A stretch of 64,000 bases of DNA from an uncultured Bacteroidota bacterium (GCA_964602985.1 CAZRTJ010000005.1:73198-137197), one strand, 5' to 3'. Numbered from the stretch's first letter, positions 364-57,005 are shown. Numbers and translations are program-made. The notes: generated from the sequence alone by a model not told the origin.

Positions 364-1725
364 CTACAAAGGACGGGCACCGGTCGGTGTCACTCCAAAC
401 GCCTCAATCGAATCGAAAATCAACTGAGCCGCATATTTGTAGTTGTGGTATCCGTACCCCTTGGATCGAACGACCAGGAAATAATTATACAGCGCACCAG
501 CCCGGTCTTTGGACAATTGAACCGAGATGCTGGAACTCGTCCACTTACCGGTCGTCGAATTGAAGGTAGCTGTTCGCTGCACACGGACCGCGTCGTGATA
601 GATATTTGCAAAACGGGTGGTCGCGTTCGAACTCAAGACCGGATCTGATGATGAGGCCAGCGAATCCAGCACATATTCCGTCGGTGCGTCCACCTGGCTC
701 AGCAGACCGGCGGTCGCAGGACCCGTGCTGTCGGGATCAAACGTGTTCAGAATATCCTGCAACTGCTTCAACAGCGTCTCGAGATTGGCCACTGAAGCAG
801 ACTGGATGGAACTGATATCTGTGGCGCCTGTATGGCATCCGGACACGGCACACGACGCGACTTTTGGAGAAAAATCATGGTTCCCGTAATTGCCGTTTTC
901 GGTGATTCCCGGCATATGACAGGTCACACACGCCTTGTTCAGAGCCGCCACGTGCGTCGAATTGGAATAGGTTTCGCCTGTGAACTCATATCCGCCTTCA
1001 CCGGAATACAAGTCCGCGCCCGGGCCTTCATGTGGACCCCAGTGACGCGATGTCAGTGACACGTTCGTCGTCTTGATAAAATCCGTGACATCCTTACGGG
1101 ATTTATGGCACATCATGCAGGTATTACCTGTCCCGTAATTGGGCATTTGAGTCCCCGTCGCCGAGGCCGTCGTCGCGCTCTTTTCAATATAAATGCCCTG
1201 CGTGGTAGACGTGCGAAGTGGATAATTGCCCGGCACATAGATCGAAGTCACGTGCTGGTTTGTCGAATCGGTCTTGGGTTCGTGACAGGTCAGACACTGG
1301 ATTTGTGCAAAGTTGGCATTGCCGTCGTACCCCGCTTCATAGATTTTGTTGTCCCCGGTGTTCTTATACAGGATTTGACCCAGAAGAACATTCGCCACTG
1401 TGCCCCCGGAATTTGAAACCGCTCCATCCAGCCGAGAAGCGAGGGCATCCTTGGCATGACACATTCCACAGGACCGGCCGGTGTTGTTCGTAAATGTCTC
1501 CTGCTCTTCGGTCAGCAGGATCTCCGCAAAATGAGACGAATTGCTGTACTGTTCCCATATGCCGCCGCTGTTATGACAGGGAGCCAAACATGCATTGGCA
1601 TTGACGCCGTCGATACCGTCTTCGCCATTCGTTCCGGCCGGACCGCGTGGCCCTTCGCAGGACAATAACGACACGGCAAAGAGGGTGACAAACAGATTAA
1701 TGAATTTCAGAAGAGATCTATTCAT
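364..1725 (-). CDS. Multihaem c-type cytochrome lipoprotein; 4 canonical CXXCH plus one CX3CH and one CX4CH; short collagen-like G-X-Y stretch after the lipobox
   Basis: Signal peptide with lipobox LLSC. GPRGPAGTNGEDGIDG is five G-X-Y triplets. Haem motifs in order: CLAPCH, CGMCH, CLTCH, CMMCH, CVTCH, CAVSGCH. Strong RBS AAAGGAGG before the ATG. Confidence 0.85.
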   Translation of the reverse strand: MNRSLLKFINLFVTLFAVSLLSCEGPRGPAGTNGEDGIDGVNANACLAPCHNSGGIWEQYSNSSHFAEILLTEEQETFTNNTGRSCGMCHAKDALASRLDGAVSNSGGTVANVLLGQILYKNTGDNKIYEAGYDGNANFAQIQCLTCHEPKTDSTNQHVTSIYVPGNYPLRTSTTQGIYIEKSATTASATGTQMPNYGTGNTCMMCHKSRKDVTDFIKTTNVSLTSRHWGPHEGPGADLYSGEGGYEFTGETYSNSTHVAALNKACVTCHMPGITENGNYGNHDFSPKVASCAVSGCHTGATDISSIQSASVANLETLLKQLQDILNTFDPDSTGPATAGLLSQVDAPTEYVLDSLASSSDPVLSSNATTRFANIYHDAVRVQRTATFNSTTGKWTSSSISVQLSKDRAGALYNYFLVVRSKGYGYHNYKYAAQLIFDSIEAFGVTPTGARPL

Positions 1726-1977: not shown

Positions 1978-2538
1978 CTATTTGGGTCGAGGGTGACTGA
2001 TGAGGGAATGCATTTCTGAGTAGGTAAATGGCTTGTAAGTCGGAGATTCCTCATTATGACACGTCTTACAACGCGCTTCATCGGGCTTGATCAGGCCGAC
2101 CGATTCGCCCGGAGTTTTGCCGTCTGTTATGGCTTGCATGACTTCCTTCGTCCAGTAATCACCTCCAGCGCCATGGCAGGACTCGCAGCTGACGCCGTCT
2201 TCCTTGCGGTATTTCTCCGTGTAAAACTTGGCGTCTAGCCCAGCACCGTCGATGTGACACTTCAGACAGGCCAACTCCGTTTGAGGATTGCCCAGTCCCT
2301 TGGCAGTTGCAATTTCCTTTGCCTTGTCGCTTCCAAGCGTCTCGAAGGCTTGCGCATGCTTGCTTTCTTTCCAGGATTTGTATTGTGCACCCTTCTTGGG
2401 AGACATGTGACACGGCTTGCATTTATCGGCTCCGACATAGGCGTGCTCGTTGGGATCGGTCCATTCAAGTTCAGCATAGTCTTTGACGTTCCACGAAACA
2501 AGAAATCCCACGATCATGGCGAGTATCAGCGTTTTCAT
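1978..2538 (-). CDS. Tetrahaem cytochrome c (cytochrome c554-like family), periplasmic
   Basis: I place the start at the internal Met (MKTLILAMIVGFLVSW, signal peptide) with a GGAG RBS. Four CXXCH: CKPCH, CLKCH, CESCH, CKTCH. The ORF-track start at 2712 adds 58 non-signal residues, so I reject it. Confidence 0.8.
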   Translation of the reverse strand: MKTLILAMIVGFLVSWNVKDYAELEWTDPNEHAYVGADKCKPCHMSPKKGAQYKSWKESKHAQAFETLGSDKAKEIATAKGLGNPQTELACLKCHIDGAGLDAKFYTEKYRKEDGVSCESCHGAGGDYWTKEVMQAITDGKTPGESVGLIKPDEARCKTCHNEESPTYKPFTYSEMHSLISHPRPK

Positions 2539-2574
2539 AATGTGACTCCTTTGTTGCAGTCCCAAGCACCGCGG

Positions 2575-2605
2575 CCTCCAACAAACGTACAGCTCCGTTG
2601 GAGGC
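2575..2605. promoter_or_regulatory. 9-bp inverted repeat (GCCTCCAAC...GTTGGAGGC) in the divergent promoter region between the tetrahaem cytochrome and the clpX-like gene
   Basis: Perfect 9-bp stem with a 13-nt spacer, 37-67 nt upstream of the cytochrome start. It could be an operator palindrome or a 5'-UTR stem-loop. Confidence 0.3.
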
Positions 2606-2835
2606 AAAACAATGATGATTTTCCGCCTTCCAATTCCACAATACGGCCAGCCCCTTCGACAAGAAATGACGATCGTCAGTGATAAGAACATCGTCAGAGG
2701 AAGCTTGCCCACGCGAGACCGGAAGCCGCTTCGCGTCCAGGGCCCCTCTCATCCCGTCACGCCACGGAAGTCCTGGGTTGTCTCAAAGGCGGTTGCTATT
2801 CTGCTCCCTCGCGTGTAAGTTATTATCGAAATTTC

Positions 2836-5693: not shown

Positions 5694-6833
5694 ATGGCCG
5701 CTCTAACAACCGACGAACTCCGTCGGTATTCGCGTCACCTCATTCTCCCGCACTTTGGAAGAGAAGGACAGGAAAAGCTTAAGTCCGCTCGTGTCTTGGT
5801 GATCGGCGCCGGTGGACTGGGCAGTCCGCTGCTTCTGTATCTCGCCAGCGCGGGAGTCGGTCACATCGGCGTCGTCGATGAAGATGTTGTCGATGTGTCC
5901 AATCTGCAACGACAGGTTCTCTACGCCACTCACGATGTCGGCCGCGCCAAGGCCGAGGTTGCCGCGGAGCGCATCCGCGCCCTGAATCCACACGTATCGG
6001 TTGAGACCTATCCAGTGCGATTGAATTCCGACAATGCCATGTCCATTATCGGATCGTACGACGTGGTCGCCGACGGAACCGATAATTTTCCCACGCGATA
6101 CCTAACTAACGATGCCTGCGTGCTATTGGGAAAACCGCTGGCGTATGCTTCGATCTTCCGTTTTGACGGGCAAGCGTCCATTTTCAATGTACCACGTGCG
6201 GATGGAAGCCGCGGGCCGAACTACCGGGACTTATTTCCGTCCCCGCCGCCGCCCTCCTCCGTCCCCAGTTGCGCCGAGGGAGGCGTTTTGGGCGTGCTTC
6301 CCGGAATGATGGGATGCATCCAAGCCAATGAAGTAATCAAGGTGATCACGGGAATCGGCCGTCCGCTCAGCGGTCGACTCCTGCTGTTTGACGCACTCCG
6401 GTTCGAAACCCGTATGATCGAATTTGCTTGCGATCCCAAGAATCCGCTAAGCGGCGACCACCCGACGATCACTGAATTGATCGACTACGAAGGCTTCTGC
6501 GGACTCCGCGGCCAGACGACTCGAGGAATTGCTGTAGAAGAGCTTCAGATCATGATTCAGGAAGGGCGTCCTTTTCAACTCATCGACGTGAGAACAAAAG
6601 AGGAATACGATCTGGCCAATCTCGGCGGCATCCTCATTCCACTCGCCGCGCTACAGGAGCATTTGTCCAAGATCCGACGGGATTGTCCGGTGGTCGTTCA
6701 TTGCAAGACCGGAATACGAAGCGCGCAAGCCGTGTCGCTCCTGCAGCAACAGGGCTTTCACAACGTGAGCAATCTGGAAGGCGGGATTGTCGCATTTGCA
6801 AAATCCTTCCGCCCGGACTTGATCGTCTACTAA
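5694..6833 (+). CDS. moeB: MoeZ/MoeB-type adenylyltransferase (ThiF/E1-like) with a C-terminal rhodanese domain
   Basis: VLVIGAGGLGSP nucleotide loop, two CxxC pairs, and a rhodanese catalytic loop CKTGIRS near the C-terminus. Confidence 0.85.
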   Translation: MAALTTDELRRYSRHLILPHFGREGQEKLKSARVLVIGAGGLGSPLLLYLASAGVGHIGVVDEDVVDVSNLQRQVLYATHDVGRAKAEVAAERIRALNPHVSVETYPVRLNSDNAMSIIGSYDVVADGTDNFPTRYLTNDACVLLGKPLAYASIFRFDGQASIFNVPRADGSRGPNYRDLFPSPPPPSSVPSCAEGGVLGVLPGMMGCIQANEVIKVITGIGRPLSGRLLLFDALRFETRMIEFACDPKNPLSGDHPTITELIDYEGFCGLRGQTTRGIAVEELQIMIQEGRPFQLIDVRTKEEYDLANLGGILIPLAALQEHLSKIRRDCPVVVHCKTGIRSAQAVSLLQQQGFHNVSNLEGGIVAFAKSFRPDLIVY

Positions 6834-48217: not shown

Positions 48218-48985
48218 ATGGCTCATAAGAAACAACCCAGTCGTGCCGCTGCTTGGACCATCCGTACACTTGTTGATGCCATGTGCAGAACGGACAAGTT
48301 TATCACTGCGCGAGTCGGCATGGCTGTCAACGTTGGTATTACGATTCGAAACTGGATCACTGGATTCTACATTTATGAGTACGAACAACGAGGAACCGAT
48401 CGCGCCAGATACGGAGAGCGCCTCCTTGACGTTCTCTCTGAAAAACTCTCCAGCGCAGGCATTCAGGGAACAGCTTCTCGGACATTGCGGTTGTGCCGAC
48501 AGTTCTACACTGCCTACCAACAAATTCAGCAGACGCTGACTGCCAAATCGGAATGGTTGGCTTCTTCCGATAGAATTTGGCAGACGCTGTCTGCCAAATC
48601 AGACAATACGTCGAACAAAACGATTGGGTGGACGGCATCCACCCAATTCAAAATACCCGAAGCGAAACTCCTTGAGCGACTTTCCTTTTCCCATTTTGCC
48701 GAGCTTATCGAAATTGACGATCCTCTCAAACGCTGCTTCTACGAAATCGAATGTACCCGCGACAACTGGTCGGTGCGTGAACTGAAACGCCAGATCGGAA
48801 CTCTCTACTACGAGCGCCCCGGATTGTCAAAGAACAAGAGGAAACTTGCGGAGCTCGTGCGAAAAGGAGACCGCCGAGCCGAAGCTCCGCTGCAACAACA
48901 AAACCTTTTGATTTCGACCGGGCCTCTGACTATCTTGTCCGGTCGCGCTAACGCGACCTGTCCGTTGAATTCTCACTTTCTTTGA
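48218..48985 (+). pseudogene. Truncated DUF1016 (YhcG-like PDDEXK nuclease) remnant; N-terminal region only, with an internal 21-bp duplication
   Basis: GFYIYEYEQRG, RTLRLCRQFY and WSVRELKRQ match the YhcG N-terminal half. The nuclease domain is missing. Local GC is clearly lower than the flanks. Confidence 0.5.
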
Positions 48986-49027: not shown

Positions 49028-49270
49028 ATGCCGGTCAAAAGTTATCTTCTTCAACCCGTCCGTGGAATGGACGATGAACTCAAATCAGCGCTAAGCCCCT
49101 TGGGCGGGTGCGAACTGATCGAGACCACCCGTCCAGACCTTTACGTTTTGCTCACCGACACTTCCTCCCGCGAAGAAGAAAAAAAACTGGAAACTGCGTT
49201 GGAGACGCTCCCGGGAGTCGCGTGTCTGAGCCTGGTGTCCGCCTACGATGACAGGGAGATTGAAATATGA
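49028..49270 (+). CDS. napD: NapD-like chaperone for periplasmic nitrate reductase
   Basis: 80-aa protein directly upstream of, and overlapping by 4 nt, napA. NapD-like pattern (hydrophobic core, acidic tail, conserved V..L.L). Confidence 0.65.
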   Translation: MPVKSYLLQPVRGMDDELKSALSPLGGCELIETTRPDLYVLLTDTSSREEEKKLETALETLPGVACLSLVSAYDDREIEI

Positions 49271-51570
49271 ATCGTCGGGAATTGATCAAAAAGATGGCCA
49301 CGCTGGCCGCCATGACCGCCGCCGCGTCCGTGATTCCGGGCGTCACCTTCGCCCGCAACGTGGACGAATGGACGGAAGATCCCATCGAGTGGAAGAAATC
49401 TCCGTGCCGATTTTGCGGCGTCGGATGCGGCATCCTCATCGGTCTGTCCAATGGCAAAGCCGTCGCCGTCAAAGGCGATCCCAACAGTCCGGTGAATAAA
49501 GGTCTCTGCTGTGTGAAGGGCTATCACTCCGTCATGGCGTTGTACGGCAAGGATCGCCTGACCAAACCCTACATCCGCAAGAACGGACGGCTCGTGCCGG
49601 CCACCATGAAGGAAGCGCTCGACCTGATCGCGGAAAAAATGAAGGAGACGATTTCCAAACACGGCAAGGATTCCGTCGCCGTCTACGGCAGTGGACAGTG
49701 GACGATCCCCGACGGCTATGTCGCGTCAAAGTTCTTCAAAGCCGGCATCGGAACCAACAACGTGGAAGGCAACGCGCGACTGTGCATGGCCAGCGCCGTC
49801 ACGGGCTTCCTCACATCCTTCGGACAGGACGAGCCGATGGGTTGCTATGACGACATCGATCACGCCGACGTATTTGTCCTCTGGGGCAATAACATGGCGG
49901 AAATGCATCCGGTGCTCTTCTCCCGACTGCTGGATCAACGCATGCGGCGCGGCGCCAAAATCATCGACTTTGCCACCCGGACGACCCGCACGAGTATGGC
50001 CGCCGACAAATCGATTCTCTTTCGCCCGCAAACCGATCTTGCCGTCGCGAACGCCATCGCATACGAATGCATCCATAACGGCTGGATCAACGAGCGGTTC
50101 ATCCGTCAGCACACGGTATTCAAGAAAGGCAAGACGAACATCGGATACGGCCTCGAAGATCATTCTAATTTTCAGGACGAACCCAAAGACGCGACGTTCG
50201 ACGAGTACAAGAAATTTCTCGAAGATTACACGCCCGAAAAAGTGGAAAAGATCTCCGGCGTTTCCGCCAACGACATTCGCTACATTGCCCAGATGTACGG
50301 CGACCCGAATAAGAAAATCATGAGCCTGTGGTGCATGGGAATGAACCAGCACACGCGCGGTACGTGGATCAATAACCTCGTGTACAATATTCATCTGCTT
50401 CTCGGAAAAATTTCCACTCCCGGCAACAGTCCCTTCTCTCTGACGGGACAGCCCAGCGCGTGCGGGACCGTGCGCGAAGTCGGCACGCTGACCAATCGCC
50501 TCCCCCACGGTTTTGTGACCAATGAGAAGGATCGCAAACTGGCTTCGGAAATATGGAACGTCCCCGTCGAGAAAATTCCCGACAAGCCGACGTATCACAC
50601 GATGGAGATGTTCCGGGCGCTCGACCGGGGCGACATTCGTTTCATTTGGATCCAGGTGACCAATCCCATGGTCACGTTGCCCAAGCTCACGCGGTATCGC
50701 GAGGGCGCGTTGAAGGAAGATCGGTTCGTGGTCGTCTCCGATGTGTATCCTACGCCGACGACGGATGTGGCCGACGTGATTCTGCCGTCCGCCATGTGGA
50801 TCGAACGCGAAGGCATGTTTGGCAACTCCGAACGGCGCACCCAGCACTTCGAGAAAATGCTCACGCCGCCGGGTGAGGCGATGAGCGACACTTGGCAGTT
50901 GATCGAGGTCGCCCGGCGAATGGGATATGAAAAACTCTTCCCGTGGAAGGAAGAAAACCACATTGAAGAAATTTGGAAAGAATACACACGTTTCCACCAC
51001 GGGCCGGATCATGAAATGGCGACCTATGAAAATCTCAAAGCCAATCCCGGAGTGATGTGGCCTTGTCCGGACGGCAAAGAAACCAAGTGGCGCTACCACG
51101 CCAAAACGGATCCCGCCGCCAAAGGCGACTCGTTCGACTTCTACGGCAAGCCCGATGGCAAAGCGTGGATATGGATCCGCCCGTACGAACCGGTGCCGGA
51201 AGCGCCCGACGACGAATACCCGTTCTGGCTCAATACGGGACGTGTGCTGGAACATTGGCATACGGGCTCTCTGACACGCCGCGTGTCGGTATTGCACAAA
51301 GCAGTCCCGTCATCGTACGTCGAACTGCATCCGGAGGATGCACGCGAACTCGGAATCAAGAACGGCGATCGGGTGCGTCTGATCTCGCGACGCGGAAAGA
51401 TCGTGATGTCCGCCTCCATCAATGAGCGCGGCGTGCCGCCACGCGGACAGGTCTTTGTACCATTCTTTGACGAAGGCTATCTGATCAATGAACTGACGCT
51501 GGACGCATTCTGCCCGATCTCGGGACAGCCGGATTACAAAAAATGCGCGGTGAGAGTCGAACGCGCATGA
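49267..51570 (+). CDS. napA: Periplasmic nitrate reductase catalytic subunit NapA (monomeric short type)
   Basis: Tat signal NRRELIKK; CRFCGVGCG [4Fe-4S] motif; NARLCMASAVTGF Mo-ligand cysteine region; 767 aa. Confidence 0.92.
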   Translation: MNRRELIKKMATLAAMTAAASVIPGVTFARNVDEWTEDPIEWKKSPCRFCGVGCGILIGLSNGKAVAVKGDPNSPVNKGLCCVKGYHSVMALYGKDRLTKPYIRKNGRLVPATMKEALDLIAEKMKETISKHGKDSVAVYGSGQWTIPDGYVASKFFKAGIGTNNVEGNARLCMASAVTGFLTSFGQDEPMGCYDDIDHADVFVLWGNNMAEMHPVLFSRLLDQRMRRGAKIIDFATRTTRTSMAADKSILFRPQTDLAVANAIAYECIHNGWINERFIRQHTVFKKGKTNIGYGLEDHSNFQDEPKDATFDEYKKFLEDYTPEKVEKISGVSANDIRYIAQMYGDPNKKIMSLWCMGMNQHTRGTWINNLVYNIHLLLGKISTPGNSPFSLTGQPSACGTVREVGTLTNRLPHGFVTNEKDRKLASEIWNVPVEKIPDKPTYHTMEMFRALDRGDIRFIWIQVTNPMVTLPKLTRYREGALKEDRFVVVSDVYPTPTTDVADVILPSAMWIEREGMFGNSERRTQHFEKMLTPPGEAMSDTWQLIEVARRMGYEKLFPWKEENHIEEIWKEYTRFHHGPDHEMATYENLKANPGVMWPCPDGKETKWRYHAKTDPAAKGDSFDFYGKPDGKAWIWIRPYEPVPEAPDDEYPFWLNTGRVLEHWHTGSLTRRVSVLHKAVPSSYVELHPEDARELGIKNGDRVRLISRRGKIVMSASINERGVPPRGQVFVPFFDEGYLINELTLDAFCPISGQPDYKKCAVRVERA

Positions 51571-52247
51571 AGGACGTACTCAAACATCGCAAGGTTTTCA
51601 TCTTTCTCGTCATCCTGCTGATGGCTTCGGTGATCTACGTGTTCGGCGAAAGTCTGTCCGGCGAAGACATCACGGCTGTCGGGTCCGAAACGAGATGGGT
51701 GTCGGGTCCCACGTTGCCGCGCGAAGCAGGGGTATTCCGACGCGCCGCCGATGCACTGATTTACCTCGGCCTGATTAACGAAAGCGGCAAGCGAACGATG
51801 CGGACGTACTACGAACGCCGCGCCTACGACGGCGCGCCGCCGATGATCCCGCATGTGGTGGACGACGAACGCGCCTTCGGCGGCAAAGTCTGCCTGACCT
51901 GTCATGAAAACGGCGGCTACGTGCCCAAATACCAGGAGTATGCTCCTGTCGTTCCGCATCCGGAATTGATCAACTGCCGCCAATGTCACGTTCCCGCCAA
52001 AACGAATTCGCTCTTCCGCGCGTCCGACTTCAAACCGGCCGGCGTTCCCGCACTCAAACAGCGCGCGTTGTCGACAAGTCCGCTCCTCATTCCGCATCAA
52101 CTTCACATGCGCGAAAATTGTCTCGCCTGTCATGCCGGACCGGGTGCGCCCCAGGAAATTCGCACCACGCATCCCGAGCGTTCGAATTGTCGGCAATGCC
52201 ACATGGTTCAGCAACCCATGGAAACTTTTTCGAGGCCGGTTCAATAA
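51567..52247 (+). CDS. napB: Membrane-anchored tetrahaem cytochrome made of two tandem NapB-like dihaem modules
   Basis: N-terminal TM helix, then two repeats of the NapB signature: APPMIPH...CLTCH...CRQCHVP and SPLLIPH...CLACH...CRQCHMV. ATGA overlap with the napA stop. Confidence 0.75.
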   Translation: MKDVLKHRKVFIFLVILLMASVIYVFGESLSGEDITAVGSETRWVSGPTLPREAGVFRRAADALIYLGLINESGKRTMRTYYERRAYDGAPPMIPHVVDDERAFGGKVCLTCHENGGYVPKYQEYAPVVPHPELINCRQCHVPAKTNSLFRASDFKPAGVPALKQRALSTSPLLIPHQLHMRENCLACHAGPGAPQEIRTTHPERSNCRQCHMVQQPMETFSRPVQ

Positions 52248-52248
52248 T

Positions 52249-52860
52249 ATGCCACGACCCGACCGTATCCGATGGCTATTCGCCGCGATGTTGTGCGTCT
52301 GGATCAGCGCGTGTTCCAAGCATGAAACGCATGGCCTGGCCGCGATGCTGGACGAGGCGCCGCCGCCCGATTCCGCAACCTCCGCCGCCCAGCCCTCCCT
52401 GGGAGAATGGCCCGCACTGACGGCAGTTCAGGCCGATCTGGAAACGTACGTGGTCTCGCGCACTCCGCGCCTAACGAAATATCCGTGTACGAACTGCCAC
52501 ACGAAGCCGCTGAAGGAGATGAAATCCGTGGAAGTCCGCAAAGCGCATTGGGACATTACTTTACAGCACGCCGCCGAAAACATCATGACCTGTCTCACCT
52601 GTCATACGGAAACGAACCTGGACACCCTGCACAACCTGACGAATCAAACGCTGTCGTTTAACACCAGCCACGAGGTGTGTGGGCAATGTCATTTCACGCA
52701 GCTGCGTGATTGGAAAGGCGGCGCGCATGGCAAACGCGCCGGCGGCTGGGTTCTACCGCGCGTGCTGACGTTGTGCGTGGAGTGCCACAACCCGCATCGT
52801 CCGGCCTTCGACAGCCGGTGGCCCGCCATCCGCAGTAATCTGATGGAGAGGCTCCGATGA
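52249..52860 (+). CDS. Tetrahaem c-type cytochrome lipoprotein (NapM/c3-like)
   Basis: Lipobox WISAC; CTNCH, CLTCH, CGQCH, CVECH. It begins 2 nt after the previous stop. Confidence 0.75.
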   Translation: MPRPDRIRWLFAAMLCVWISACSKHETHGLAAMLDEAPPPDSATSAAQPSLGEWPALTAVQADLETYVVSRTPRLTKYPCTNCHTKPLKEMKSVEVRKAHWDITLQHAAENIMTCLTCHTETNLDTLHNLTNQTLSFNTSHEVCGQCHFTQLRDWKGGAHGKRAGGWVLPRVLTLCVECHNPHRPAFDSRWPAIRSNLMERLR

Positions 52861-53960
52861 AACGCCCTGCGGACAATTCCGGACTGCAATCCATGCTTGC
52901 GGAAAATGCACTCGGCTGGTTTCTCCAGAGAGACGTCGAAGATCGCTATCTGCAGGATTCGTGGCAGCAGGTTCGATTTTGGAATCAGACGCACGATACG
53001 ACCCCCCGTGCTCCCGCCGTCACCGTCGCCGAACTGTCCATGCAGGAAGGCATGTCTCGTCGCGACGCGATGAAAGCGATGACGGGCACTCTGCTCGCGG
53101 GCATGGCGCTGTTTCAGACGGCGTGCAATCCGTTCGCCGATCCGCTCGAACGCGAAAAGGCCAGCCTCGCGTGGGACGAATATTTCCAAAAGAACTTTCG
53201 CAAAATGTCCGAAGGCGAAAGAGAAGAAACCGTCCGACGGCTGGAACGCCAATACGAATTGCAATCCGGTCAACGTGTGCGGATTTCCCGAAGAGAGGCC
53301 ATTCCGGGCGTCCTGTTCGGATATGCGTTTAACATCTCCAAGTGCCGCGGATATCTCGAGTGCATTCGCGGCTGTCTGAAAGAAAACAATCAGGACCGTA
53401 AATCCGGGATGCAGTACATCTCCATTCACGAACACAAAAGAGGTCAAATCAATTTTTCCAACGCACCCGACGACTGGTTCCACGAGGTTCCCTCCGAAGA
53501 TCACTTCTACATAGGCACGCAGTGTTTTCATTGTGAAAATCCGCCTTGTACGGATGTGTGCCCCGTCCAGGCCACGTGGAAAGAACGAGACGGCATTGTC
53601 GTCGTGGACTACAACTGGTGCATTGGATGTCGCTATTGCGAAGCGGCGTGTCCGTACGACGCCCGGCGATTCAACTGGGCCGACCCGGTCGTCCCAGACT
53701 CGGAACTCAACCGCGAGCAGCATTATCTCGGCAATCGCCTGCGCAAGAAAGGCGTGATGGAAAAATGCACATTCTGCATTCAGCGCACGCGCGCGGGCAA
53801 GAATCCGGCCTGCGTCGAAGCCTGTCCGACCGGCGCGAGGATTTTCGGCAATCTGCTCGACCCGGATTCCGAAATTCGATGGGTCCTGAAGAATAAAAAA
53901 GTCTTCCGTCTCAAAGAAGAACTGGGCACCGAGCCCAAGTTTTGGTACTTCATGGATTGA
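52857..53960 (+). CDS. Tat-exported four-cluster [4Fe-4S] ferredoxin subunit (NrfC/PsrB/DmsB family)
   Basis: SRRDAMKAMTGTLLAG Tat motif at residues ~66-80, and four Cys clusters including CxxCxxCxxxCP. ATGA-coupled to the upstream gene. The alternative start at 53040 gives a normal-length Tat peptide. Confidence 0.8.
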   Translation: MKRPADNSGLQSMLAENALGWFLQRDVEDRYLQDSWQQVRFWNQTHDTTPRAPAVTVAELSMQEGMSRRDAMKAMTGTLLAGMALFQTACNPFADPLEREKASLAWDEYFQKNFRKMSEGEREETVRRLERQYELQSGQRVRISRREAIPGVLFGYAFNISKCRGYLECIRGCLKENNQDRKSGMQYISIHEHKRGQINFSNAPDDWFHEVPSEDHFYIGTQCFHCENPPCTDVCPVQATWKERDGIVVVDYNWCIGCRYCEAACPYDARRFNWADPVVPDSELNREQHYLGNRLRKKGVMEKCTFCIQRTRAGKNPACVEACPTGARIFGNLLDPDSEIRWVLKNKKVFRLKEELGTEPKFWYFMD

Positions 53961-54056
53961 CATGTTGCGTTACAAAAACACATACAAGATTTCGTACAGT
54001 GATGAGAACGCAGTCAACCCCCGAAGTTTTCAGGTTTGATCTTAAAAAGCGTGGAA

Positions 54057-54070
54057 TTGATTTGAGTCAA
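54057..54070 (+). promoter_or_regulatory. FNR/CRP-family-like box TTGAT-N4-GTCAA in the intergenic gap inside the nap locus
   Basis: TTGATTTGAGTCAA matches TTGAT-N4-(A/G)TCAA in 9 of 10 positions, ~340 nt upstream of the NrfD-like gene. Confidence 0.25.
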
Positions 54071-54105
54071 TGACAGTTGGTCGAATGAAAGAGATTTCCT
54101 TTCTG

Positions 54106-54132
54106 TTCTTTCTTTTGACGCAAAAGAAAGAA
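54106..54132 (+). other. Perfect 12-bp AT-rich palindrome (TTCTTTCTTTTG-acg-CAAAAGAAAGAA)
   Basis: Seen directly. No U-tract follows, so it is not a canonical terminator. It sits in a 450-nt lower-GC gap. Confidence 0.4.
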
Positions 54133-54412
54133 CCAAAGAAAACAGCGGCTGTGGAAAAAACGCCGGAATCGGAGTTCGCTTATGGAGGCGGAAAACAAGT
54201 TCCTAATGTGGACGTGACGAGTTGCTTTCATACCTGTTCCACGTTTTCCGCATCATGGAGCGCGAACTCCGGTTCTGTTTCGGCGTTTTTTCCAAGGCCG
54301 CCAAGTAGGCTGCGTCCTGCGAGAAAGTTTGATAACAAATGGACGGCGGTTGCCGGGATGAGATCCAAGGCAGACATTCGAAACAGGAACAACGTAGGGA
54401 GAACGGAACTTC

Positions 54413-55699
54413 ATGGCTGATCTCTTTCCCAACGGCGAAGCGGGCAAATTGCGCGAGGAACTGCGGTGGTCCCTCATTCGCTCCTTTCTGCGGGACGGTC
54501 TGGATTCCGTGACGCGCGGTACGCGGCCCTATCATATTTGGATGGGCACGCTGACGTTCTTGATGCTGCTCGGTGCGTACTCGTATTCGATTCAGTTGCA
54601 GGAAGGACTGGTCGTGACCGGGTTGCACGATCGGGTGAGCTGGGGTTTCTATATTTCCAATTTTACTTTTCTCGTCGGCGTCGCGGCCGCCGCGGTCATG
54701 CTGGTGTTACCGACGTACGTGTTGAAGGACATTGATTTCAGCAAAGCCGTGCTGATCGGAGAAGGCGTCGCGGTATCGGCGCTGTTCATGTGTCTGGCGT
54801 TTGTCACCGTCGACATGGGCGGACCGGCTCGCATCTGGCACATGATCCCATTGATCGGCGTGTTTAACTGGCCAAGTTCGATGCTCACATGGGACGTCCT
54901 GGTGCTGAATGGCTACCTGTTTATGAATCTGACGATTCCGTTTTACATTTTACTCTGTCATTATCAGGGGAAGAAACCAAACAAGAAGATCTACGTGCCC
55001 GGCGTTCTCATATCGGTATTCTGGGCATTTGGCATTCACCTGGTCACGGCGTTTTTGTATGCCGGTCTGCCCGCGCGGCCGTTTTGGAATTCGTCCCTGC
55101 TCGGCCCTCGATTCCTTGCTTCCGCCTTTGCCGGCGGTCCGGCATTGATCATTATCGCACTGATGGCGATCCGCCGATTCACGAAATACGCGATCGACAA
55201 CGTCACGCTCGACAAGATCGCCATGGTCGTGACCGTCGCGGCGCAAATCAATCTGATCATGCTGGGATCGGAGTTGTTCAAAGAATTCTACAGGCCGACG
55301 CACCACAGCGAGAGCGCCGTGTATTTGTTCTTCGGCATCGGAGAATTCAACTCGCTGGTCCCATGGATTTGGACGGCCATTTCACTGAATGTCCTGGCCT
55401 CACTCACGCTCACCTATCATCCGTTCCGTCGGAATCACCGCATCCTGAAATACGCATGCGGCGGATTATTTCTCAGCATCTGGATCGAAAAGGGCCTTGG
55501 TTTGATCATTCCGGGATTCATTCCCAATCCCTGGGGCAAGATAACCGAATACACACCGACCCTGGTTGAGATCGGCGTCGCCGTCGGTATCTGGGCGATG
55601 GGATTGTTCATCTTTTCGACGCTCGTCAAGATCGCGCTCCCAATCGAAGAGGGCAGTGTGCGATTTTCCCCTCCCTCCGTACCGCAGAGGAACAGCTAG
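54413..55699 (+). CDS. NrfD/PsrC-family integral membrane quinol-interacting subunit
   Basis: 8-10 TM helices with NrfD-like motifs (WGFYISNFTFLVG); no Cys clusters, so not NapH. Confidence 0.8.
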   Translation: MADLFPNGEAGKLREELRWSLIRSFLRDGLDSVTRGTRPYHIWMGTLTFLMLLGAYSYSIQLQEGLVVTGLHDRVSWGFYISNFTFLVGVAAAAVMLVLPTYVLKDIDFSKAVLIGEGVAVSALFMCLAFVTVDMGGPARIWHMIPLIGVFNWPSSMLTWDVLVLNGYLFMNLTIPFYILLCHYQGKKPNKKIYVPGVLISVFWAFGIHLVTAFLYAGLPARPFWNSSLLGPRFLASAFAGGPALIIIALMAIRRFTKYAIDNVTLDKIAMVVTVAAQINLIMLGSELFKEFYRPTHHSESAVYLFFGIGEFNSLVPWIWTAISLNVLASLTLTYHPFRRNHRILKYACGGLFLSIWIEKGLGLIIPGFIPNPWGKITEYTPTLVEIGVAVGIWAMGLFIFSTLVKIALPIEEGSVRFSPPSVPQRNS

Positions 55700-55952: not shown

Positions 55953-57005
55953 TTAGTTCGCGGCTACCAGAGCGGCCTTATCGGAATACCGTTTGTAAAT
56001 TTTCAGAATGTCGGGAATTGCCTCGCGGAAAGCGCCCACAATTGTGGGATCGAAGTCCACACCGGTTCGCTGTTCAATTTCCCTCACCGCCTCCTCCAAA
56101 GTCCATGCATGTTTGTACACCCGCTCCGTCGTGAGCGCGTCGAAAACGTCGCTGACGGAGCAAATCCGCGCAAACAACGGAATTTCCTCCCCGGAGAGTC
56201 CGTTCGGATAACCCGTGCCGTCGTATTTCTCATGATGCGAGAGGGCAATTTCGGCCGCCACCTGGATCAGGCGGGAATTGCTGCCCTGCAGAATCTCGTA
56301 CCCCATGATGGTGTGTTCTTTCATTTCATCATATTCTGATTCCGTAAGGCCGCTTTCCTTCAGCAGGATCTGATCAGGAACGCCGACTTTGCCGATGTCG
56401 TGCATCGGAGCGGCCATCAGAAGCAGTTCCTGTTCCTCTTCGGACAAGGCGAGTTTCGCACCGATGGCCTTGCAGTACAGCGCCATCCGGATGATGTGAG
56501 CGCCGGTTTCCGGACTGCGATATTCCGTCGCTTTGGTCAGACGAAAGATCAATTCCCGCTCGCGCGCGACGAGTTCCCGAGTGGCTTTGCGAACTTCCTC
56601 CGCCAGCCATTCCGCATGATTGGCCAGCGCTTTCTGACTCTTGCGTAATTCCAACAAATTACGAACTCGCGCCATGAGTTCGACATTGTCAATCGGCTTC
56701 GTGAGAAAATCCGTCGCGCCCACCTCCAGCGCTTTGTATCGTACGTCCTTCTCCCCGGCAGCCGTCACCATGACGACGGGGATGTCTTTATAACCGGGCA
56801 GGGTCCGAAAAGCGGTGATGAACTCGATTCCGTCCGGAGTCGGCATCATGTAATCCACCAGCACCAGATCGGGCGGCGTACTCTGGCACCACTCCAGCGC
56901 TTTGGACGAATCGGTATAACAGACGGGCTCGGCCGACACTTTGAGAATCAAGTTACGCAAAATCGTAACGTTGATTTCATTGTCGTCGATGATGAGTACT
57001 TTCAT
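55953..57005 (-). CDS. Response regulator with receiver domain fused to an HD-GYP phosphodiesterase domain
   Basis: MKVLIIDD...DYMMPTPDG receiver, then an HD motif and GYP-type residues (HHEKYDGTGYP). The ORF-track start at 57827 adds 274 aa of GC-rich read-through overlapping the MFS gene, which I reject. Confidence 0.85.
   Translation of the reverse strand: MKVLIIDDNEINVTILRNLILKVSAEPVCYTDSSKALEWCQSTPPDLVLVDYMMPTPDGIEFITAFRTLPGYKDIPVVMVTAAGEKDVRYKALEVGATDFLTKPIDNVELMARVRNLLELRKSQKALANHAEWLAEEVRKATRELVARERELIFRLTKATEYRSPETGAHIIRMALYCKAIGAKLALSEEEQELLLMAAPMHDIGKVGVPDQILLKESGLTESEYDEMKEHTIMGYEILQGSNSRLIQVAAEIALSHHEKYDGTGYPNGLSGEEIPLFARICSVSDVFDALTTERVYKHAWTLEEAVREIEQRTGVDFDPTIVGAFREAIPDILKIYKRYSDKAALVAAN

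Follow-up and report, generated by a model that had tools for sequence, protein, structure and literature searches.

A six-gene nap operon from an uncultured Bacteroidota bacterium with a probable NrfD/FeS-type quinol-oxidising module

The stretch of DNA analysed here (the window) comprises 64,000 nt of one strand from an uncultured Bacteroidota bacterium (GCA_964602985.1, CAZRTJ010000005.1:73198-137197). At 49028-55699 it contains six open reading frames (ORFs) on the + strand, which form a genuine six-gene operon for periplasmic nitrate reductase (Nap) (Table 1). Textbook accounts of Nap give it two quinol dehydrogenases, NapC and NapGH. The operon probably encodes a complete Nap system whose quinol-oxidising end is a two-subunit module of the NrfCD/DsrOP type, not NapC or NapGH. 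What is directly established is the family to which each protein belongs, the cofactor motifs, and the fact that in different phyla these genes strictly accompany napA. The locus would represent a third input module for Nap, based on an NrfD-family protein and an iron-sulfur (FeS) protein. An earlier reading of this DNA, made without database searches (the sequence-only reading), had not recognised it as a standard nap type. NapC and NapGH genes are indeed lacking from the cluster and its neighbourhood, but the locus is no oddity, since the relatives surveyed point to the six-gene layout as the prevailing nap layout in Bacteroidota and not a rare one. We regard the system as a widespread nap variant and a useful annotation correction, not as something categorically new.

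The catalytic subunit is unambiguous, as had been stated. The napA product scored above the cut-offs of both curated NapA equivalogs of NCBIfam (NF010055, 977 bits, cut-off 904; TIGR01706, 944.7 bits, cut-off 930.55), and its translation contains the twin-arginine motif NRRELIK (MNRRELIKK...) of a twin-arginine translocation (Tat) signal, CRFCGVGCG...C and GNARLCMASA. By analogy with known NapA structures, the Cys residues of the latter two motifs would be the ligands of the [4Fe-4S] cluster and of Mo, respectively. Compared with solved NapA proteins, it matched the NapB-partnered enzymes (3ml1_A, 819 bits; 2nya, 810 bits; 1ogy, 762 bits) better than the monomeric enzyme of D. desulfuricans (633 bits), and by sequence similarity it falls in the NapB-partnered class. 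The small protein encoded directly upstream of napA belongs to the NapD family, as found with an orthologue profile. The window protein itself scored 22.2 bits with Pfam NapD, under the gathering score of 28; the profile of 36 orthologues gave E. coli NapD (2pq4, 2jsx) as best solved matches over the full length (E 3e-4), and 33 of the 36 matched Pfam NapD. NapD would chaperone the Tat signal of NapA, which would then be matured.

Gene order was compared in 78 fetched relatives with enough upstream DNA, whereas the tblastn set comprised 88 sequences, the junction set 83 and the alignments used for residue invariance 42 orthologues. The order napD-napA-tandem NapB-FeS-NrfD was found in all 78 loci, which is conservation far beyond chance. 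Flanking genes were unrelated among the three loci read gene by gene, and NapA was the sole molybdoenzyme within 8 kb in 77 of the 78. A search up to 8 kb from the cluster in these 78 loci gave no napC, napG or napH gene; the NapH-like flanking ORF that was tested (in L038) was CcoG, and a similar FeS-rich ORF is present in seven other loci. Because the order is conserved, the flanks are unrelated, NapA stands alone and no NapC, NapG or NapH gene is near, the FeS/NrfD pair belongs to nap. It is not a separate unit for another reductase, which the sequence-only reading had named as the finding that would overturn it. The single locus with a second molybdoenzyme, from a Calditrichia metagenome-assembled genome (MAG), has a molybdopterin-oxidoreductase-like ORF (L085:11594-12886) with 23% identity to NapA.

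The carriers of the cluster are numerous. With one genome scanned per species, the NrfD-like gene was present in at least 596 species-level genomes, mainly of Flavobacteriaceae (Tenacibaculum, Aquimarina, Zobellia, Maribacter, Flagellimonas and others). Further hosts are Cytophagales, Saprospiraceae, Chitinophagales, Gemmatimonadaceae, Calditrichia, Ardenticatena (Chloroflexota) and Myxococcota. The closest named relatives of the window's NapA and NrfD-like proteins, at 73-77% identity, are from Gemmatimonadetes, Chitinophagales, Fulvivirga, Kapaibacterium and Calditrichia MAGs. Five Tenacibaculum genomes other than that of T. maritimum carry the six-gene cluster; nitrate reduction by T. maritimum itself has been attributed to NapAB genes (PMC5561996).

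The last gene of the operon encodes a membrane protein of the NrfD family. It matched Pfam NrfD (PF03916) with 108.6 bits (gathering score 25.8), it adjoins the FeS gene, and neither Fer4 nor NapH-type families were reported for it by Pfam or NCBIfam. Its score with NCBIfam DsrP was 411.6 bits, above the cut-off of 350. The AlphaFold model (predicted template modelling score, pTM, 0.81) has about 10 transmembrane (TM) helices and fitted best on ActC of Alternative Complex III (TM-score 0.73 over about 430 columns; 6btm, 8k9e, 6lod, 6f0k), at 18-21% sequence identity; against 8-helix PsrC, coverage was partial (TMq 0.38). The protein had been described as an NrfD/PsrC-type subunit without Cys clusters, and so not NapH. 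That description stands, with the class refined to the 10-helix DsrP/ActC kind instead of the 8-helix NrfD/PsrC kind. The NrfD-like/FeS module is closest to DsrOP by hidden Markov model (HMM) and to ActC by fold. Across the fetched relatives the NrfD-like protein is about 65-76% identical, with many invariant polar or charged residues, and it has thousands of relatives at about 70% identity. The window gene is intact and keeps all family-invariant residues. We propose that its product is the menaquinol-binding subunit.

The FeS protein has a twin-arginine motif, SRRDAMK, in which the RR at residues 68-69 is invariant, and 15 invariant Cys residues arranged as CX5CX3C, CX2CX4CX3CP, CX2CX2CX3CP and CX2CX11CX3CP. 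The first motif has three Cys only, which gives four clusters, one of them with three Cys ligands. Such a three-Cys site recalls the [3Fe-4S] cluster of QrcC (PMC8076601). In NCBIfam the protein scored 192.4 bits with DsrO (cut-off 200), 151 with QrcC and 122.8 with NrfC (cut-off 377.6); NapG and NapH were not among the 25 best-scoring of the 42 families matched. Its relatives of solved structure are PsrB (2vpw_B), ArrB (6cz7_B) and ActB (6f0k_B and 6btm_B). The sequence-only reading, a Tat-exported four-cluster ferredoxin of the NrfC/PsrB type, was right about the Tat-type signal and the cluster number, but it has to be amended for the three Cys of the first motif and for DsrO being nearest by HMM. 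In the N-terminal region (residues 1-90, 52857-53126 in the window) and in that of the orthologues, an extension of about 60-100 residues, conserved in length, precedes the twin-arginine motif. Cys90 follows a hydrophobic region in a lipobox-like setting and is conserved in at least 90% of the orthologues, which suggests, on sequence grounds, a Tat-dependent lipoprotein with an unusually long leader. The extension contains a MLAENxLxxWL motif in close relatives of the window and Cys-rich CGCG...C stretches in Flavobacteriaceae.

Between napA and the FeS gene lie the genes of two tetrahaem cytochromes (tetrahaem 1 and tetrahaem 2). The proposal that tetrahaem 1 was built from two NapB modules proved correct. 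Its two halves are 33% identical (E 1e-8), profiles of the halves from 79 orthologues aligned with an hhalign probability of 99.4% (E 2.7e-21), and the family profile had NapB chains as its top three solved matches (1ogy_B, 1jni, 3ml1_B). With Pfam NapB (gathering score 25.1) the first half scored 29.3 bits and the second 17.1, below it. Module 1 accordingly combines the pattern PPxIPH...CxxCH...CxxCH with a family match, and module 2 is homologous to it at a sub-gathering score. Four CxxCH motifs are present in 80 of 82 orthologues, and four candidate distal His, one for each haem, are invariant; the haems of NapB are bis-His ligated. A hydrophobic helix lies at residues 13-31 of the longer ORF, and its sequence is poorly conserved. 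With 226 residues, four haems and an N-terminal anchor, the protein is not a soluble dihaem NapB of about 130-160 residues. NapC/NirT-type models were not reached either (Cytochrom_NNT, 18.9 bits, gathering score 24.1; NrfH, 23.6 bits, cut-off 134). Since the halves are homologous, NapB chains are the best matches, and the NapC/NirT and NrfH models are unreached, tetrahaem 1 is a membrane-anchored tandem NapB.

Tetrahaem 2, a tetrahaem lipoprotein as had been noticed earlier, is conserved as such. When 88 sequences were searched by tblastn, it was detected in 83, each time with four CxxCH motifs; an invariant Cys22 comes after a hydrophobic stretch, as in a lipoprotein-type signal. Four further His residues, outside the haem motifs, are invariant. 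Its mean column identity is 36%, and a word-based search found 6 homologues only, because this family diverges fast. By sequence and profile, its matches to solved structures were all weak (multihaem MtrA 6r2q_A, c552, octahaem and NrfA-type chains). In NCBIfam it stayed below the cut-offs for NrfH (21.3 bits), NapC and DmsE, and the DsrJ family was not reported. Its AlphaFold model, made from a 6-sequence alignment, was unusable (predicted local distance difference test, pLDDT, 37.6; pTM 0.21).

From these components the following electron path can be proposed. Menaquinol would be oxidised at the 10-helix NrfD-family subunit, from which electrons would pass to the Tat-exported, membrane-tethered FeS protein with its four clusters. 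The FeS protein would reduce the tetrahaem lipoprotein, the lipoprotein the membrane-anchored tandem NapB, and the tandem NapB would deliver electrons to NapA, where nitrate would be reduced to nitrite. In this scheme we infer which cytochrome comes first, which quinone is used, the stoichiometry and whether operation is electroneutral or energy-conserving. Because all redox proteins of the path other than NapA are predicted to be tethered to the membrane, the proteins are likely to form one membrane-bound supercomplex. By analogy, it would resemble a stripped-down Alternative Complex III, with an ActC-like subunit, an ActB-like FeS domain, a TM-anchored multihaem cytochrome and a lipoprotein cytochrome. 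With its tandem NapB, its additional tetrahaem lipoprotein and an FeS protein held at the membrane, the system would seem to be a defined supercomplex, one suited to structural work.

Several points weigh against this reading. The electron path is deduced from gene content. Tetrahaem 2 has no recognisable family, and where it acts in the chain is conjecture. The FeS protein is just under the DsrO cut-off and far under that for NrfC, which leaves its subfamily undefined. The structured spacer before the NrfD-like gene leaves the co-transcription of that gene unproven in the window. Possibly napC or napGH lies elsewhere in the genome, the search having covered the neighbourhood of the cluster.

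The last-named spacer bears on whether the NrfD-like gene is a separate transcription unit here, the spacer acting as a terminator, a processing site or an internal promoter region. We think this possible, if unlikely. Upstream of the spacer the genes are tightly packed. ATGA overlaps join napD to napA, napA to tetrahaem 1 and tetrahaem 2 to the FeS gene, as the sequence-only reading had said, but the two cytochrome genes are 1 nt apart, not 2 nt. The lower-GC gap of about 450 nt that it described is present, with 452 nt and a GC content of 0.46 compared with about 0.55-0.60 in the genes. As RNA the spacer folds with a minimum free energy of -156.2 kcal/mol, against -124.6 +/- 5.7 for shuffled sequences (z -5.5); an AT-rich palindrome lies at ~54105-54133, followed by a long imperfect hairpin at ~54143-54300. 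Independent Logan assemblies of the same organism break at the palindrome. A separate unit could use a weak terminator-like site (54256-54271) and the GGGAG ribosome-binding site of the NrfD-like gene, some 12 nt ahead of its ATG, and the junction measures at least 80 nt in 29 of 83 relatives, half of the long spacers folding significantly better than shuffles. Downstream of the main hairpins, however, there is no canonical intrinsic terminator with a T-tract, and the order and strand of the genes are conserved everywhere, the gap being 3-45 nt in most relatives (median 28 nt, maximum 466 nt). The NrfD-like gene is also intact, as described above, and a separate unit would alter regulation, not function.

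We could not match the spacer, or the DNA upstream of napD, to any riboswitch or other Rfam family, nor does the spacer recur elsewhere in the window or resemble the spacers of relatives. Gaps of at least 80 nt were rarer at the other junctions (none at napD/napA or between the cytochrome genes, two loci at cytochrome/FeS and six at napA/cytochrome). Since long spacers recur at the FeS-NrfD junction and are rarer elsewhere, this junction is a recurrent site of insertion or expansion. In 12 loci of Flavobacteriaceae/Bacteroidia (Table 1) the spacer holds, on the sense strand, an element like Flavo-1 (Rfam RF01705, an orphan motif). Its end mostly lies 40-55 nt ahead of the NrfD-like start, within a full range of 3 to 138 nt. 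Of the 12 copies, three attain the Rfam gathering score, and compensatory changes are seen in an outer stem, GCGUU/AACGC. The 1.33 Mb of relatives' loci contained 12 two-box matches to it, all at the FeS-NrfD spacer. That the element might be nap-specific was rejected, as a scan of metagenomes gave 120 two-box loci, none of them with nap genes. The expanded spacers share no conserved small gene; the shared blocks are the Flavo-1-like RNA element and tandem repeats. The Tamlana spacer L073:7439-7904 consists of about 3.5 copies of a 123-nt unit, and that of Pseudotamlana, L029:7586-8033, has repeated GGTTAAACGAATAA-type units.

If the FeS/NrfD pair is the electron input of Nap, the energetics of the pathway may differ from the usual view. 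We put forward, with considerable doubt, that the 10-helix subunit makes Nap nitrate respiration electrogenic in Bacteroidota and their relatives, in what would be a previously unrecognised respiratory supercomplex. The large potential drop from menaquinol to nitrate would then be coupled to proton translocation. The pointers to this are indirect, namely the 10-helix class of the subunit and its many invariant polar or charged residues. For ActC, electrogenic operation has been proposed. For QrcD, which belongs to the 10-helix group, it has been demonstrated (PMC6303296). With the subunit class electrogenic by demonstration in one member and by proposal in another, the energetics of Nap in the carriers is a testable question. 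If the suggestion is true, Nap would be an energy-conserving respiratory branch in marine and soil heterotrophs, not a redox-balancing sink.

A different division of labour is that the tetrahaem lipoprotein, the FeS protein and the NrfD-like protein together make up a general quinol:cytochrome c oxidoreductase. Such a mini Alternative Complex III would supply several reductases of the periplasm, Nap being just the client with which it shares an operon. The fold nearest to the NrfD-like protein is that of ActC, the subunit set parallels Alternative Complex III, and a role as general quinol:acceptor reductases has been proposed for related modules of multihaem, FeS and NrfD proteins that lack a catalytic subunit (PMC9386147). 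A second possible client is also close by in three relatives of Flavobacteriaceae/Bacteroidia, where a gene for a 203-aa tetrahaem protein and one for a protein of about 500 aa with four CxxCH motifs, an nrfA preceded by a tetrahaem gene, directly follow the cluster (L016:9374-11490, L024:9400-11517, L048:10078-12172). The L024 pair proved to be a bona fide nrfH (156.6 bits) and nrfA (673 bits); together with the cluster it would form a contiguous nitrate-to-ammonium gene island. However, this nrfA has its own quinol dehydrogenase, because the bona fide nrfH precedes it. The module always stands directly after napA and the NapB-type cytochrome, the three loci read gene by gene share nothing else at their flanks, and the top homologues examined were all nap-linked. 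A general oxidoreductase therefore seems to us quite improbable, and a module dedicated to Nap remains the preferred reading.

We give very little credit to the idea that tetrahaem 1 itself is the quinol dehydrogenase, of the NapC/NrfH/CymA kind, and that the FeS/NrfD pair is accessory or for some other use. Its gross layout is like that of NapC, an N-terminal TM helix followed by four c haems, and the Cytochrom_NNT and NrfH models do give faint scores, but both of these are below the family cut-offs. The internal duplication of a NapB module, the NapB chains as best solved matches and the invariant candidate distal His for all four haems, as in NapB, speak for the tandem NapB instead, as does the poor sequence conservation of the TM helix.

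The weakest alternative, that the pair is DsrO and DsrP of a DsrMKJOP sulfite-reduction complex, draws on the DsrP score above its cut-off, the DsrO score near its own and the public naming of orthologues as DsrP, but as a functional assignment it is refuted by gene context: no dsrM, dsrK, dsrJ, dsrA, dsrB or dsrC was encountered when the genes of the window region and of three relatives' loci were read, only 10 other ORFs with at least two haem motifs and one other molybdoenzyme-like ORF lay within 8 kb in 78 loci, the adjacent cytochromes are of NapB type and unclassified tetrahaem type rather than trihaem DsrJ, and the carriers are largely Flavobacteriaceae and other Bacteroidota. Orthologues from Rhodothermales/Reichenbachiella (P0097 and P0104) bear the public name 'sulfate reduction electron transfer complex DsrMKJOP subunit DsrP', and clusters that adjoin it in sequence space likewise match the DsrP model. 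For the nap-linked NrfD-like orthologues this name is a systematic mis-annotation.

Like the classical nap operons (napFDAGHBC, napEDABC and napAGHBFLD), the cluster encodes NapD, a Tat-exported NapA of the NapB-partnered class and NapB-type dihaem modules as its presumed direct electron donor. Unlike them, it has no NapC, NapG, NapH or NapF, and none was seen up to 8 kb away in the 78 relatives; NapB is tandem-duplicated and membrane-anchored, and quinol oxidation is assigned to the NrfD/FeS pair plus the tetrahaem lipoprotein. NapH is a four-helix protein with CX3CP motifs and cytoplasmic FeS clusters, whereas the window protein is an NrfD-family protein of about 10 helices. The logic of the system is shared with E. 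coli NrfABCD, in which an NrfD-family subunit, a Tat-exported four-cluster FeS protein and a small multihaem shuttle, the pentahaem NrfB, feed a periplasmic reductase, NrfA. The window subunit differs from that of NrfCD in having 10 helices, not 8, the FeS protein lies far from NrfC by score, and the terminal enzyme is NapA. DsrOP are the closest sequence relatives by curated HMM, but the DsrMKJ/DsrAB context is not seen, the partners are tetrahaem proteins and not trihaem DsrJ, and quinol oxidation is predicted to run towards nitrate. With Alternative Complex III (ActABCDEF) the cluster shares an ActC-like fold, a relative of the ActB FeS domain, a TM-anchored multihaem cytochrome and a lipoprotein cytochrome. 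It lacks the molybdopterin-like domain of ActB, ActD, ActF and a second NrfD-like gene, and the acceptor would be NapA where Alternative Complex III has an oxidase or a soluble cytochrome.

Comparable genes have been mentioned before. In the planctomycete Lacipirellula parvula, NapA occurs with an FeS subunit fused to an NrfD-like subunit (PMC6995999), and in two KSB1/Planctomycetota MAGs nap is followed by multihaem, 4Fe4S, NrfD and ActD genes (PMC10732223). These cases have fused subunits or ActD, with no tandem-NapB tetrahaem described; both are one-line genome observations and do not define a widespread operon type. Two surveys of NrfD-type complexes, covering 13 and 15 systems, do not mention a Nap or nitrate reductase partner (PMC6303296; PMC8076601). 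We found no published description of the six-gene nap type in the full-text literature, and an earlier account in subscription journals is possible; nor did any paper in the full-text literature searched combine 'quinol dehydrogenase', 'NapA' and 'Bacteroidet*'. Bacteroidota are dominant in marine particles, sediments, soils and wastewater. Surveys that use napC or napGH as markers, or that rely on automatic names, would mis-score the carriers, and nitrate reducers would be mislabelled with sulfate-reduction genes.

Table 1. Genes and spacer of the nap operon in the window, and loci of relatives with a Flavo-1-like element in the corresponding spacer
Feature	Coordinates or loci	Strand	Remarks
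napD	49028..49270	+	80 aa; NapA signal-peptide chaperone
napA	49267..51570	+	767 aa; catalytic Mo-bisPGD/[4Fe-4S] subunit with Tat signal
tetrahaem 1 (tandem NapB cytochrome c)	51567..52247	+	226 aa; N-terminal TM helix and two NapB-like dihaem modules
tetrahaem 2 (cytochrome c lipoprotein)	52249..52860	+	203 aa; family unassigned
FeS protein	52857..53960	+	367 aa; Tat-type, four-cluster, DsrO/QrcC/NrfC/PsrB kind; conserved N-terminal extension
FeS-NrfD spacer	53961..54412	+	452 nt; GC 0.46; strongly structured as RNA
NrfD-like protein	54413..55699	+	428 aa; NrfD-family, 10-helix DsrP/ActC class
Flavo-1-bearing loci	L013, L016, L031, L032, L034, L035, L036, L044, L055, L058, L065, L067		e.g. 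L032:7846-7944

The surroundings of the operon in the window were also read. For the ORF directly upstream of napD, 48218-48985 (+), the sole match was to the N-terminal domain of DUF1016, a YhcG-like nuclease family, and this ORF is perhaps what remains of a truncated gene. A gene for a response regulator with an HD domain of the HD-GYP type, at 55953-57005 (-), is convergent to the nap cluster. Its listed ORF of 624 aa is over-extended, the receiver domain beginning at residue 277. No such gene was seen beside the cluster in the three relatives' loci that were read gene by gene, and no link to nap is evident. No rRNA, tRNA or other Rfam family was found in the window. Near its start are two adjacent ORFs, 364-1725 (-) and 1978-2712 (-), with four CxxCH motifs each, encoding a 453-aa protein and a 244-aa cytochrome c554-like protein. 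As a candidate NrfHA pair (364-2712) they were rejected, since the curated NrfA and NrfH models were not reached, and they are left as two unclassified tetrahaem cytochromes. At 5694-6833 (+), in the same 64-kb window as napA, lies a gene that may serve in supplying the molybdenum cofactor; its product is a MoeB/MoeZ-type molybdopterin-synthase adenylyltransferase and includes a rhodanese domain.

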